Source of the DNA: Escherichia phage vB_EcoP_phi419
Reading direction: 5' to 3' (one strand)
Length of the DNA: 60,662 nt
Sequence record: PV189407.1
Shown: in pieces, positions 18,001-30,000 of the stretch
Position numbering within the stretch: the stretch's first letter is position 1
Layout: each line of letters starts with the position of its first letter
Made by a program: the position numbers

Positions 18001-21000
18001 TCTAAAACGCCAGACACCGGCGCTAACGCTATTCAGAGTCAGGCTCAGAACTGGAGACTGTAATTATGGAGTATGGCAAATACGAAACTCTCGCAAGGGC
18101 TGGTTATTCAGGAGCAGACCGCCCACAGGGTGACTGGCAGACGTCAGCAGCGCTGACACGCCAACAATACGACGACTGGCGAACCAGATATTTGCCCCGC
18201 GTGGCAAGGCTGGCTGACCTTGGTGAGAACAACAGCCTGATGAATGCACAGCTTGCCCGGGTGGGCGGCCTTGCCACTTCCAGTCTCCGTACAGCGCAGA
18301 TGGCACAGGATAACCAGATGGCGAGATACGGGGTAAATCGTCCGGATAATCCCAACAGTAACACACTGGGTTTGCGTAATGCTCTGGCAATTGCTGGCGC
18401 GAAAAATGGTATCCGTGAAGCAGAGCAGGATCGCCAGATGAACATACTGACGGGGGCTTCTGCACCTGCAAGACAACAACTGAGTGTTGGCGGTCAAATG
18501 ATGACAGCGTAAGGGGGAAGATATGGGGTACGGCTTACTGGATATTGCGAATCAGTCACGGCGTGAGGCATTACAGGGAATAAGTGACGCAGACCGACGA
18601 CGTGAAGAAATTGAGGCTGCGAACAAACAGATGGCGGCGCAACAGAAAGCGCAGAACAAGCAGAATATCGGTACGGGCATTGGTACGGGGGCGGCTATTG
18701 GCGCATCCGTTGGTGGTCCTGTTGGCGCTGTTGCTGGTGCAGTAATTGGCGGCATTGCTGGTTCTTTGTTTTAAGGAGTGGTGAATGAGCGGATTTGCAC
18801 AGGGGTTACTTGCCGGATTCAGCACTGTTGACCAGGCAATGACCCGTCGTAAGGAGCTTGGTTTGCGAGAAGCACAGCTTGCTCAGCAACAGAAAAATAA
18901 CGAGCGCGATTTTGAATTTGCGCAGTCTCAGTTTGAACATAATAAAGACGTTGATCAGCGGAACTTTGATTACAGAGCCAAAGTTGATGACCGCAATTAC
19001 GCACTGCAGGAAAGGGAGTTTAACGCCAACCAGAATTACCGGAATGCGTCGCTGGGGATGGAACAGCAACGACTCCAGTTGCAGAAATACAACCAGCGAC
19101 GGCTTGAGTATAACGATATGCTGGCACGTGATCAGTCGGTGATGGTGGCGCTGGGAAAAGCGATTGATGCAGGTGACCATGATGCGGCCTCTCGTCTGTT
19201 CGGAAAATTATCGGATGCCAACCCCATTAAAATAATATCAACGGAAGGCTATGCTGCGAAGGCGGGTCAGGCCGTGAACAACCTGCAGAAAATCTTTGAT
19301 GATAAGCCGGACAGGGCGATCGATTCGCTGAATACCCCGGAAAATCTCGATGTGCTTTCCGGCGTGTTTGCCCCGGAACTACAACAGCGTATTGGCATGC
19401 CTGATTCAACCGGGGAAAAAACGATAAAAGAGGCCAGGATTGGCAGTATCGTACCGGCGCAGCAGGAAGGGTACGTACTTATTGGCCTTGATCTCACATA
19501 CAGCGATGGCTCCACCGCGCATAAACCTGTAACAGAATACGGCAGTGCGCACCCTGATGATCAAACCGTGCTGGCGATACCCGTTGATAAGGCTATCGCT
19601 CAGGTCAGGGATCGCAGCAAATTTGCAGAGATATCGAAAAATTATGGTTATTTTATGCCGAAGCAGCAGGGACTTTCTCTGAAAGAGCTTCAGAAGGGGG
19701 CCAGCAACGTAGCGGCGGACGCGATTAAGAATGGCGGTAATGCTCAGGCTGCGGTGGATGAATATTATGCTGCGACTGGTTCACAACCGCATCAACAGAA
19801 AATTCAGCAACAAAAACTTCAGCAACAGGTTATCAACTGGGCGGGAGATGATCCTGATAAGCTGTCATTTGCCAGAAATGTAGCGGCCCGTCAGCCTGAA
19901 ATGCTGGAACCTCAGAATCAGAAATTGCTGGAGAACGGGTATGCGAATTTTCTCCGTATTCAAAAGGCCAGGGGGGAACAGGCCAGAGATGAAAGTGCTT
20001 CATCTGCATCTCAGTTTATCCGTGGACTGAAACAGAATTACGCCCAGTAATTCACGATATTCCATTAATACCATTTCCTGATGCCCGGCCATTGTGCCGG
20101 GTTTTTTTATGGAGTCTGTATGGCCTATTCAGAGGAACAGCGTCCTGAGGCGCAACTCGGTAACCAGAATCGTAACAGCCTGAACATTCAGCAACCCGGC
20201 GAAACTGACAGCTATGAAGCATTTTTCTCTGATTCAAATCGCTGGAAGGATAACAGTACGTCGTTCAGCCTGGGCGATGTATTGCCAACAATGGGTAAAG
20301 GTTTCGCCCGGTCCGTCCGGGGAACAGGGGAAATGGCCCGTGGACTCGGTGATGCGATGATTCAGAGCCCGGTAAAAACAGGGGCGCGTATTTTAAATGA
20401 GTTCAGCCGTATGGGGCTGCCGGGTGTCGCAACTGTGCAGGATATTTTTGCCGGTGGCAGCAGGGGGGCTGATGAGGTCATCGATACCCTGCCTGATGGC
20501 AAAAACGCGGTTACAGATACTGTCGGTAAAGGTCTGAAGGTCACCGGTAAGGCTGTCAGTGACGGCGCTAAATCCTCGGATGAATGGCTGACCAGTAAGA
20601 TGTCTCCGGGTGCTCTGCGTGCGCTGAATACGCCGATGACCGAAGGCTATGATGATTCTGCGGTCTGGGTGGCGAAGGGCGTAAACCTGATTGGTGCCCT
20701 TGTACCTGATATGGTTGCTGGCGGTGTGGCTAAAAAGGTGGGTGATGTCACATTGCGAAAAACGCTGACCGCCGGGCTGGAGAAAAAATACATCGCGGCA
20801 GGGATGCAGCCGGAAAGAGCCACGGCACTGGCAGCAGAAGCTGTCGATAAAAAAATGCCGGATTTATTCCAGGCGGGCCTGATCACCCATTCCACAGCCA
20901 GTGCACAGGGGCAGAGTGCAATGGCGGCAGCAGATGCTGTTCTTAATGCGGATTACTCTGAGCTGGCGCAGTCACCGAAATTTCAGCAGACGTTTTTGTC

Positions 21001-27000: not shown

Positions 27001-30000
27001 AGAGTTTGTTGAGGATGGAGGTAAAACCGGCTGGTTTAACATGGGTGACCTTGAAGGCCAGCAGAAGGAAATGGATCGCCTTGTATCGCTGGCGAAGGGG
27101 GGATGGAAAGGCCAGAGTATCGGTGCATGGAATTCGTTCCTGAACCTTGTGGAGGATGCCAACGGTGCGGTTGAAAACGCACTGCGTCTTTCTGCCTATA
27201 AGCACGCCCGTGATGCCGGTTTGTCACGCCAGCAGGCGGCGTCTCTTGCCAAAAACATGACGGTGAACTTTAACCGTCGTGGTGAGCAGGGGGCGCTGAT
27301 GAACTCGCTGTACATGTTCGCTAACGCCAGCATTCAGGGGACGGCAAACCTTGTGAGAACCCTTGGGCACCTTAATGGTGACGGTCCGTTACTGGAGCGC
27401 CTTCGCTGGAAGAATCTGAATGTACCTCAGAAAATCGCGCTTGCTGCTGTGGGAGCGGGTTATCTGCTTGGCTCGCTTAATCGGAGTGTGGCGGGTGAGG
27501 ATGATGACGGGGTTAACTGGTATGACAAGGTGCCTGATCATGTGAAAGAGCGCAACCTCGTTATTATGAAATCGATGTTCGGGGGCAAAGCCGGTGAGTA
27601 CTGGAGTATTCCTCTGCCTTACGGGTACAACGTTTTCTTCCTGCTCGGGCATACCGCTGAAGGTGTGGCGGCGGGTGACCTGACGGCGTCCCGTGCTGCC
27701 GGTAATGTTGTTGGTGGTGTGCTTGGTGCATTCAGCCCGATTGGCAGTGAGACGTCGGAAACACTGTCCGGGGCATTGCTGAAAAATGCAGCGCCGACCA
27801 TTCTGCGTCCGTTTGCGAACCTTGCCATGAATGAAAACTTCATGGGGGCGCAGATTTACCAGGAGAACATGCCGTTTGGTACACCAAAACCTGACAGCCA
27901 GCTGGGAAGACGTTCAACGCCAGAAGCGTACAAGGCGTTTGCATCCTGGCTGAATGCGTTCTCAGGTGGCAGCCAGTACCGTTCAGGCGCGGTGGATATC
28001 ACACCGGAATCGCTGAAATACTGGGTGGACTATATCTCTGGTGGTACAGGTCGCTTCATTTCCAAAACCACGGATGCGGCGGTGAAATCGCTGAATGGTA
28101 TTGATATACCGGAGCAGCAGGTGCCTTTCCTGGGGAAAATTTCGGGAGAGGTGATGCCGTATGCTGACCAGCAGAAGATGTATGACCGGATGACGGAGGT
28201 TGTGCAGTACCACGCAGAGCTGAAGAGCCTGAGGGGTTCCGAAAGAACGGCATTCATTGACGAGAACAACGGAAAATTGTCGATGAACGGGCTTATGCAG
28301 GATACCCGGAAGAGACTGAAGGATTTGCGTAAACAGCGTGATGCCATTTATGCCGACAGTACTCTCAGTCTGGCGCAACAGTCGGCGATGGTGAAATCGG
28401 TTGAGCGGGATATGAAGATTGCCGTGGATCGGTTTAACCGCGAGTACAACAAAAAAGTGGGGGTGGAGTAAGAGAAATTGCCCCGTACTGAAGTGCGGGG
28501 CATTCTTAACATAATGTGTACATAAGTGAGTACTGTTGTGATGGATGTTTTGGTATTTAATGCATTTAAATCAATGGATTGATATTTATGTTCATTATAT
28601 CCATTTAACTAAGAGGACATTGTTGCGTATTGATTTTGGTTGTTCACCATATGACTGATAATACCGTCTTTATGGTTTTAAAATCAAGGTGTAAGTTTGT
28701 TTTTGTTCATGGTTGATTATCTTCTTTTGCGTTGAAAAGTGTTTTGTTCACTTGCTAATGCGTACATATTGAGTACAGAATACATTATAAACTTGTGTAC
28801 AGGATATAAAGCATTGGCACTGAGCGACACCAAACTACGAGGCCTCTACGGAAAACCCTACTCTGGCCCTGCTGAAATCACCGATGGTGACGGGTTAAGT
28901 GTGCGGATTACTCCAGCAGGAACTATCACGTTTCAGTACCGTTATCGCTGGAATGGTAAGCCAGTACGTCTTACTGTCGGGCGCTATCCGTCTACTTCAC
29001 TGAAGGACGCGCGTGTTATCGTCGGTGAGATGCGCGCATTGTACATGAAGGGAGTTAACCCTAAAAATTATTTTGCGCCCAGTGACGGCGAACTGACATT
29101 AAAAGAATGCCTGGATCAGTGGTGGGATAAGTATGTTACTGATCTGAAACCCAATACACAGACGCTTTACAGATCCGTCGTGTACAACACTATGTACACA
29201 CAGTTTGAAGGCTCGCCAGTTGCCAGTATCCCAGTATCGGCATGGGCTCGTTTCTTTGACAAACAAGAAAGCCTCAACAAGAAAAAGGCTCGTGTTTTGT
29301 TGTTACAACTGCGTTCAGTTATTAACTGGTGTATCAGCCGCCAGTTAATCCCATCATGCGAATTACTCAAGCTTAGTGTTAAGAATATTGGGAAAAAACC
29401 AGATGTAGGGAGTCGTGTACTTACCTATACGGAACTGGCAAAAATTTGGCTGGCGCTGGAGAACTCAAAAGTAGTTACTTCCAACAAGGTGTTACATCAA
29501 TTGCTATTGCTATGGGGGGCCAGACTTTCTGAGCTACGTCTCGCGACAGCCAGTGAGTTCAACATGGAAGATTTGGTCTGGACAACCCCAAAAGAGCATT
29601 CAAAAATGGGGAATATTATCCGGCGTCCGGTATTCACTCAGGTTAAACCTTATATCGAGAGATTGCTTAATGCGGGTTTTGATGTGCTATTCCCCGGGCA
29701 GGAAATAGATAAACCTATTGATCGTTCGTCGGCTAATTTGTACATGAAAAAGTTAAGGGAGAAAATTGATATTCCTGAATGGAGAACGCATGATTTTAGG
29801 CGTTCTCTGGTAACGAATTTATCTGGGGAAGGAATTATGCCCCACGTCACTGAAAAAATGCTGGGGCATGAACTTGGGGGAGTTATGGCCGTGTATAATA
29901 AACACGACTGGTTGTCGGAACAGAAAGATGCGTATGAGTTGTATGCTGATAAAATTTTCTGGCACGCTAAACAGCTCGGTTAATTCCTCCGGCTTTAAGC

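Follow-up and report, generated by a model that had tools for sequence, protein, structure and literature searches.

The giant gene, its start site, and its setting

The window analyzed here is a 60,662-nucleotide (nt) sequence record (PV189407.1) from Escherichia phage vB_EcoP_phi419, a Traversvirus (Sepvirinae) of the type of Shiga toxin 2 (Stx2)-converting phage 86 and vB_EcoP_phi296. One giant gene (20120..28471) takes up 8352 nt, or 13.8% of the window, and encodes 2783 amino acids (aa) followed by a stop codon. This gene closes the late operon, in which terminase, portal, capsid, and tail genes precede it, and lies directly before the integrase gene (28739-29983). An earlier first-pass annotation of the sequence had likewise described a single 8.3-kb gene for a 2783-aa protein, occupying about 14 percent of the genome at the end of the virion module. 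All features of the giant gene given below, and the three smaller genes discussed with it, are on the + strand.

The DNA of the giant open reading frame (ORF) is 100% identical to that of vB_EcoP_phi296 and Stx2-converting phage 86, and 185 phage records, nearly all Stx-converting, match it with at least 90% nucleotide identity over at least 80% of its length. The gene is gp35 (Stx2-86_gp35) in the phage 86 entry of RefSeq, where it bears the label "LPD5 domain-containing protein." Its orthologues are ST933Wp72 in 933W, ORF80 in Sp5, and gp47 in phi24B, the last at the same genome position.

The longest single ORF runs from 20081 to 28471 and encodes 2796 aa; translation from the ATG at 20120 gives 2783 aa. 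As the first-pass annotation had claimed, the gene is preceded by its own terminator: an intrinsic-terminator-like hairpin, GCCCGGC-CATTGT-GCCGGGT, with a 7-bp stem (6 GC pairs) and a run of seven T residues (20083..20109), sits between the upstream stop codon (20050) and the start of the giant gene. As a class, terminator-like sites showed no enrichment in the region (7 against an expected 11.9). The identical hairpin sequence occurs in 933W, and the RefSeq annotation there takes its translation as the opening residues of the ORF; the resulting product (2806 aa) begins at an upstream ATG that lies inside the hairpin, lacks a Shine-Dalgarno sequence, and adds two cysteines. We consider the ATG at 20120, which is also used for phage 86, the more plausible start because a GGAG Shine-Dalgarno sequence can be read 5 nt before it (20111..20114), whereas the 13 extra codons from 20081 overlap the hairpin and hold two cysteines, the remaining 2783 residues having none.

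Domains of the giant protein

A module of ~450 aa, at ~aa 36-470 in the window protein (20225..21529), occupies the extreme N-terminus of 37 giant relatives. When this family was compared with the N-terminal domain (NTD) of gp50, the virion RNA polymerase (vRNAP) of phage N4, hhalign returned a Prob of 96.8% (E = 2.7e-10, 145 columns), and the controls (the reversed profile, eight column-shuffled profiles, and the N4 C-terminal domain [CTD]) all gave P ≥ 0.23. A hidden Markov model (HMM) of the N-terminal family scored N4 gp50 at 27-30 bits over residues 96-565, compared with ≤0.1 bits for 20 shuffles. In the reciprocal direction, an N4-NTD-like HMM matched 8 of 113 relatives (best E = 2.9e-9) and no decoys. 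These profile comparisons strongly support homology between the N-terminal ~450 aa of the giant protein and the membrane-inserting NTD of gp50 (aa ~96-565).

N4 vRNAP is ejected, and its NTD has predicted membrane-spanning helices, inserts into nanodiscs, and is followed by a 100-aa linker (PMC13434306). The most hydrophobic segment of the giant protein, the G/A-rich aa 180-208 (20657..20743), aligns with these predicted helices (gp50 aa 224-278); no classical transmembrane helix was predicted anywhere in the protein. Other G/A-rich, glycine-zipper-like, mildly hydrophobic segments occur at aa 405-425 (21332-21394), 2432-2459, and 2505-2541 (the latter two within 27413-27742). Iyer et al. 2017 had found the N4 N-terminal region to be without relatives outside N4-like (pro)phages (PMC5512222). 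The link between the N4 NTD and the N-terminal module of the giant proteins is apparently unreported; no literature search was aimed specifically at it.

A second property that the giant protein has in common with N4 gp50 is the absence of cysteine. None of its 2783 residues is cysteine, compared with 0.85% in the other genes of the window (P about 5e-11), and 100 of 112 giant relatives likewise have none, the total being 23 cysteines in 307,599 residues. N4 gp50, gp51, and gp52 (4294 aa in total) are free of cysteine, as are all sampled N4-like NTDs and CTDs and gp15 and gp16 of phage T7. Judged from these sequences, proteins that are threaded through the phage tail and periplasm may in general be marked by a lack of cysteine.

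The protein contains two HExxH motifs, HEWFH at aa 1274-1278 (23939..23953; conserved in 933W) and HEIIH at aa 1541-1545 (24740-24754). Composition alone predicts 0.033 such motifs, and two or more arose in 0.06% of 5000 shuffles. The first-pass annotation had recognized both motifs and placed them about 270 residues apart, close to the measured 267 aa, and had regarded them as zincin-like, which conserved signatures and predicted folds around each now bear out; its residue numbers (1287-1291 and 1554-1558) are offset by 13 aa since they count along the 2796-aa ORF from 20081. According to the predicted structures, both motifs lie in genuine zinc-protease-like domains that fall outside current Pfam peptidase models.

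Domain 1 (~aa 1185-1440; 23672..24439) is a zincin-like metallopeptidase domain of the CLCA_X type. The NCBIfam model CLCA_X (NF041907) matched aa 1190-1450 with an E-value of 4e-43 over model positions 23-245 of 250. The score of 147.7 bits is below the NCBIfam cutoff of 260 because the domain is here embedded in a giant protein, and it indicates domain-level homology rather than full-length membership in the subfamily. The signature residues are H1253, H1274-E-W-F-H1278, D1281, E1365, and E1372, with the pattern HExxHxxD. Across 48 homologues, many of them stand-alone LPD5+LPD1 proteins of ~330 aa, H1253, H1274, E1275, H1278, and D1281 are ≥90% conserved and E1365 and E1372 are invariant. 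The third-ligand Glu falls inside Pfam LPD1 (aa 1351-1430; 24170..24409), as do both of these glutamates, which belong to the helix completing the domain, so LPD1 is the C-terminal helical half of the peptidase domain and not a separate unit. CLCA_X is a phage- and plasmid-rich zincin family with an HExxH...D signature; it is the sister family of the CLCA proteases, which cleave themselves, and often occurs in long proteins of phages and plasmids (Lenart et al. 2013). Domain 1 shares with the CLCA_X/CLCA_N zincins the HExxH...D signature and nearly the whole CLCA_X model; self-cleavage is known for CLCA_N and is not known for any CLCA_X member. The domain is also an exact match to a metallopeptidase (MPTase) variant of Iyer et al. 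that has a strand-end His and an Asp three residues past HExxH (PMC5512222).

Domain 2, or MPTase-2 (~aa 1460-1690; 24497..25189), belongs to the HExxxH clade of polyvalent-protein MPTases and matches the second variant, HExxxH, of Iyer et al. 2017. An exhaustive search of representatives identified 381 cluster representatives at E ≤ 1e-3, nearly all within proteins of 1500-6000 aa; it was this search that brought the full-length giant relatives into view, whereas an ordinary homologue search gave only fragments of <500 aa. No variation is seen at H1541, E1542, H1545/1546, and E1597, and conservation of E1604 is about 90%. In an alignment of 146 family segments and the query (147 sequences), 100 have HExxxH, and a 1-aa deletion in the Stx lineage converts it to HEIIHH (aa 1541-1546; 24740..24757). 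The ratio of nonsynonymous to synonymous substitution rates (dN/dS) is lowest in this part of the gene. As H, E, H, and a downstream Glu are near-invariant across hundreds of divergent relatives, the two domains show the pattern expected of a working metal site.

In the models, both domains have a zincin fold, that of domain 1 with a mixed sheet, an active-site helix, and a Glu helix. Structurally, both have as neighbours protein endopeptidases or regulators (MtfA, PPEP, lethal factor, SprT, and ArdC). When the model of domain 2 was searched against the Protein Data Bank (PDB) with Foldseek, lethal factor was the top match and was not significant; N4 vRNAP was absent among the matches listed, its inclusion in the April 2026 library not being established. 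At the sequence level, the MPTase-2 profile had only chance matches in the PDB, and the whole giant protein had none at E ≤ 1. No Pfam peptidase model accounted for either motif in searches of eight segments at E ≤ 10, in which Peptidase_M76 appeared near motif 2 at E = 0.17 and no such model near motif 1.

The first-pass annotation held that no further domain could be assigned by eye; it is by eye only that this is true, as Pfam identifies LPD5, LPD1, MuF_C, and LPD38. It had also described long low-complexity stretches flanking the motifs, which is correct in part. One such stretch exists upstream, an E/P/Q/R-rich linker at ~aa 480-900 (21557..22819), which is under purifying selection (dN/dS 0.12 for aa 481-800), and short linkers are found at about aa 1641-1700 and 1841-1880. 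Farther downstream, aa 1880-2783 are conserved and non-repetitive.

A swappable cassette (aa 801-1200; 22520..23719) is made up of the last part of the linker, a "DFGxxIxGAxK" region, and LPD5. In the comparison with 933W, this segment is 60-76% identical, while most of the remainder is 90-100% identical and the whole protein 91%. Its synonymous divergence (dS) is 1.24, against 0.1-0.4 in the flanks, with a dN/dS of 0.19, which identifies a swapped allele and rules out positive selection as the source of the divergence. By these measures, the pre-LPD5/LPD5 cassette consists of divergent, exchangeable alleles among Stx phages. Purifying selection acts on all segments of the gene, and none shows signs of diversifying selection. 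LPD5 itself (aa 1047-1190; 23258..23689; E = 4.5e-43) is modeled as a beta/alpha unit ahead of the zincin core. Within the cassette, aa 899-1014 (22814-23161) matched a "DdrB-like ParB superfamily domain" of Pseudoalteromonas phage vB_Pun_Y3 by tblastn (34% identity, E = 3e-9), and Pfam found no match to ParB models in the giant protein. This region opens with DFGxxIxGAxK, which also opens the stand-alone LPD5+LPD1 proteins.

Downstream of the zincins lies Pfam MuF_C (aa 1740-1831; 25337..25612), with an E-value of 3.4e-18 and a score of 66 bits against a cutoff of 27.6. MuF-C corresponds to PBECR, a predicted RNase fold resembling barnase, EndoU, and colicins (Iyer 2017, PMC5512222), and the Stx domain is accordingly predicted to be RNase-like and not a metallopeptidase. 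Candidates for this fold's catalytic His, which belongs to the N-terminal helix, and for its Ser/Thr of strand 4 occur in the sequences KHVV... and ...SVYGT. A preprint on phi24B, which proposes gp47 as an ejection protein, attributes peptidoglycan-degrading metallopeptidase activity to MuF-C (bioRxiv 10.64898/2026.04.10.717836). That attribution is not supported by the BECR-fold, RNase-like assignment, and the metallopeptidase-like domains lie upstream.

The protein ends in a conserved C-terminal module of ~900 aa (aa 1880-2783; 25757..28468), which contains Pfam LPD38 (aa 2466-2671; 27515..28132), has a dN/dS of 0.08, and is 97-99% identical among Stx phages. The same ~900 aa are found in Vibrio phages (42%), Ralstonia phage GP4, the "DarB-like" protein of Burkholderia phage Bcep22, and a Bacteroides phage. 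In 111 giant relatives, a near-constant length separates MPTase-2 from the C-terminus (median 958 aa, 10-90% range 822-1274), whereas the N-terminal length ranges from 713 to 2793 aa. In sequence layout, the giant family has fixed ends and a swappable middle.

Virion location and proposed role

The phi24B orthologue was the second most abundant protein by peptide-spectrum matches (PSMs) in purified virions, with an estimated 11-35 copies per virion and peptides spanning residues 108 to 2625 (bioRxiv 10.64898/2026.04.10.717836). The proposal of the first-pass annotation that the protein is packaged in the virion thus holds for the near-identical gp47, which is abundant there and yields peptides from all its regions. 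Together with the zincin folds predicted at both HExxH motifs, this presence settles in its favor the two points by which that annotation could be judged. In the preprint data, 62% of the gel signal of gp47 was in four slices above the portal band; the supplement gives peptide data as summed counts per peptide. Because most gel PSMs came from above the portal band, gp47 undergoes no extensive cleavage inside the virion; the orthologues are packaged in the head as whole polypeptides, at roughly 10-35 copies. It is absent from both the cryo-electron microscopy (cryo-EM) and the negative-stain reconstructions (bioRxiv 10.64898/2026.04.10.717836).

Genetic data are available for Sp5, in which nine morphogenesis genes are essential, among them ORF80 (2793 aa). 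Deletion of ORF80 abolished plaques on the laboratory host; DNA was packaged normally and the heads looked normal, and anti-tail-fibre antibody did not bind them (PMC5155283). Outside the Stx phages, a giant LPD38 protein is virion-associated by mass spectrometry in Burkholderia phage JC1, and a related one is essential in coliphage PTXU04.

Three genes upstream of the giant gene also encode proteins without cysteine, of 217 aa (17410-18063), 148 aa (18066-18512), and 421 aa (18785-20050), the last being Sp5 ORF79, which is essential (PMC5155283). Their phi24B orthologues gp51, gp50, and gp48 were found in virions at an estimated 20-40 copies or so and are marked "ND" in the structure (bioRxiv 10.64898/2026.04.10.717836). 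The preprint leaves these three proteins undiscussed. In pairwise comparison, the only kind made, the 148-aa and 421-aa proteins had no similarity to N4 gp52 and gp51. We regard the three as candidate outer-membrane and periplasmic partner ejection proteins. Farther upstream, the G+C content rises to 0.62 at positions 8001-10000, compared with about 0.50 nearby, within a 754-aa tail-fibre gene (8403-10667); this presumably reflects the collagen-like Gly-X-Y repeats described for Sp5 ORF67.

From this evidence, we think it likely that the product of the gene is the giant internal protein (an ejection protein) of the short-tailed, 933W-like Stx phages, a phage-type polyvalent protein that serves as a delivery vehicle. 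In the best-supported reading, it would be the third and largest podophage ejectosome protein, doubling as a carrier of effector domains. The first-pass annotation had called it an injected, multi-domain polyvalent protein. The second part stands, as LPD5, LPD1, MuF_C, and LPD38 are families defined from Iyer et al. 2017. Injection into the cell is probable, given the homology to the N4 NTD and the complete absence of cysteine.

We propose that, after release of the tail needle, the small upstream cysteine-free proteins and then the giant protein would exit the capsid via the tail, the latter passing largely unfolded, as beads on a string. The N-terminal module would insert in the inner membrane, completing a trans-envelope conduit, and the remainder of the protein would reach the cytoplasm ahead of or with the DNA. 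There, the two metallopeptidase domains would most likely cut the polyprotein itself, as CLCA proteases do, and free the LPD5 and RNase-like cargo; the alternative is cleavage of host proteins. We favor self-processing because of the CLCA relationship, the argument of Iyer et al., and the mainly high-molecular-weight state of the protein in virions. The C-terminal module and MPTase-2, the invariant part, probably serve encapsidation or assembly at the portal, a role that would account for the tail-less deletion phenotype.

Several points weigh against this interpretation. Exit of the Stx giant protein from the capsid and its entry into the cell are inferred steps, and peptidase activity, substrates, and self-cleavage of the zincin domains are predictions. 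The window protein itself was not matched directly by the small N4-NTD HMM, and the link is one between family profiles. At the other end, the C-terminal module showed no relation to N4 CTD-C2 (BLASTP not significant, HMM at the level of shuffles, hhalign Prob 0.8%). A strand and the HExxH of MPTase-2 align weakly with N4 C1 (BLASTP E = 0.35; hhalign Prob 31%, P = 5e-4), for which we do not claim homology. N4 vRNAP has an HExxH domain yet is reported to be unprocessed. The ~19 copies estimated for the 305-kDa protein (phi24B gp47) are far above the 4 of N4 vRNAP and may be an overestimate. Finally, P22 and T7 mutants that lack an ejection protein are not usually tail-less in the way of the Sp5 deletion mutant.

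The strongest of the other explanations, though an unlikely one, is that the zincin domains are catalytically silent scaffold or regulatory modules, as N4 CTD-C1 may be, and that the protein acts unprocessed. The unprocessed state reported for N4 vRNAP would suit such a role; the (near-)invariance of H, E, H, and the downstream Glu in hundreds of relatives and the low dN/dS of MPTase-2 argue against it.

The first-pass annotation had suggested that the protein could protect incoming DNA or attack host defences. In its full form, this idea sees the main role of the protein as that of an accessory effector, of the type of P1 DarB, that counters restriction or defence, is packaged so as to protect incoming DNA, and is dispensable on hosts without defences. 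A PHROG "DarB-like antirestriction" entry matches aa 2341-2671, the positional homologues in Bcep22, JC1, and GP4 are annotated as DarB-like, and polyvalent proteins were cast as conflict effectors by Iyer et al. (PMC5512222); the exchangeable LPD5 cassette and the RNase-like MuF-C would also suit effector cargo. However, the "DarB-like" match covers the LPD38 C-terminal module only, and no methyltransferase or helicase domain was found with Pfam, NCBIfam, or PHROGs, for which reason we reject the DarB label. Orthologues are needed for plaques on laboratory strains, and every segment is under purifying selection. We therefore find a mainly accessory effector quite improbable. Because the Sp5 orthologue is essential on a laboratory host and the LPD38 giant of PTXU04 is essential too, anti-defence or DNA protection is probably not the primary role; an anti-defence role of the cargo is possible, secondary to an essential structural or ejection role.

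It is just as improbable that the HExxH domains cut peptide cross-links of peptidoglycan so that the conduit can pass through the wall, along the lines of the "metallopeptidase domain" in the phi24B preprint. Podophage ejection proteins are often wall-degrading, as in the annotated transglycosylase of T7 gp16; JC1 gp69 has a lytic transglycosylase-like N-terminus, and no other wall hydrolase was detected in the Stx protein. In contrast, the preprint puts the peptidase activity in MuF-C, an RNase-like fold, the structural neighbours of the zincin domains are not peptidoglycan peptidases, and the family of domain 1 is sister to self-cleaving proteases.

The proposal made for Sp5 ORF80, that it assembles or forms part of the tail (as a tape-measure-like protein or an AAA+ assembly ATPase), draws on the DNA-filled mutant heads unbound by anti-tail-fibre antibody and on a reported COG1483 AAA+ match (PMC5155283), but is very improbable, since the phi24B tail is built fully from other proteins while abundant gp47 is missing from the map, the N-terminus is homologous to that of an ejected protein, and the AAA+ identity must be rejected for want of a Walker A motif ([AG]xxxxGK[ST]) anywhere in the giant protein and of any ATPase match in Pfam or NCBIfam.

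Significance and comparison with known systems

Earlier publications already describe the giant gene and its family, which are not a new kind of element, and the present results leave the basic classification of the gene unchanged. What they add is a fold assignment for the two HExxH motifs, the connection to N4, the lack of cysteine as a signature, and the chassis-plus-cargo layout. Shiga toxin genes are spread by phages like 933W, which have short tails and bind BamA, and the gene is central to the question of how their DNA crosses the envelope, as it makes up 14% of the genome, is essential, and has a product present in tens of copies per virion. E1275, E1542, the membrane-module candidate at aa 36-470, and N4 gp50 as a solved comparator give definite content to the loose label "LPD5 domain-containing protein." Annotation of ejected proteins in other phages could be aided by the lack of cysteine and by the layout of fixed ends and a variable middle.

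More tentatively, the Stx giant, its >100 cysteine-free giant relatives, and N4 vRNAP may belong together as a single class of modular "ejection vehicles" that bracket exchangeable cargo, an idea we hold to be possible, though short of probable. If it is true, the cargo would be flanked by an N-terminal membrane or leader module common to all and by a fixed C-terminal chassis of an MPTase plus 1000 aa; the cargo would be RNA polymerase in N4, methylase/helicase in Bcep22, and LPD5, a zincin, and an RNase-like domain in the Stx phages. The zincins would then be a release mechanism that cuts the cargo free only after injection, and the absence of cysteine could be used as a sequence signature of tail-threaded proteins.

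The Stx giant fits the polyvalent proteins of Iyer et al. 2017 with no difference in kind: it combines unrelated domains around an MPTase hub, with LPD and PBECR domains in a late-gene context. At least two unrelated domains mark such proteins, and here there are LPD5, zincin 1 with LPD1, zincin 2, MuF_C/PBECR, LPD38, and the N4-NTD-like module; the gene is the last of the late operon, and its orthologue is in purified virions. The P1 proteins DarB and DdrB are likewise large and head-packaged, and the C-terminal MPTase of DdrB is thought to self-process (Iyer 2017). However, the P1 Dar proteins are dispensable for morphogenesis, whereas the Stx-type protein is essential and is without the DarB methylase and helicase.

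The T7 ejectosome of gp14, gp15, and gp16 resembles the proposed Stx system in having large cysteine-free components that travel in the head and, once ejected, bridge the envelope. A transglycosylase domain is found only in T7, in which the core proteins form a visible stack on the portal. The order of small, medium, and giant genes in T7 and N4 is like that of the three upstream genes and the giant gene.

The giant "DarB-like" proteins of the Bcep22-/GP4-like podophages, such as Bcep22 gp75 and JC1 gp69, are also encoded at the end of the virion module, share the C-terminal ~900-aa LPD38 module with the Stx protein (E about 1e-57), and are virion-associated by mass spectrometry; the portal, capsid, and tail genes of these phages are related to those of the Stx phages. 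The cargo differs, being lytic transglycosylase, methyltransferase, and helicase in the former and LPD5, two MPTases, and MuF-C in the latter.

N4 gp50, for which structures are available (PDB 9pnq and others), is similarly giant, free of cysteine, head-packaged, invisible in cryo-EM, and encoded after the genes of smaller ejection proteins. In both proteins, the homologous N-terminal membrane module is followed by a low-complexity linker, and farther on by an HExxH domain and a helical C-terminal region of roughly 1000 aa (C2, 1125 aa in N4), the layout and the lengths being analogous. The RNA polymerase module is confined to N4, and the vRNAP Pfam families found there are absent from the Stx giant protein; two zincins, LPD5, and MuF-C occur only in the Stx protein.

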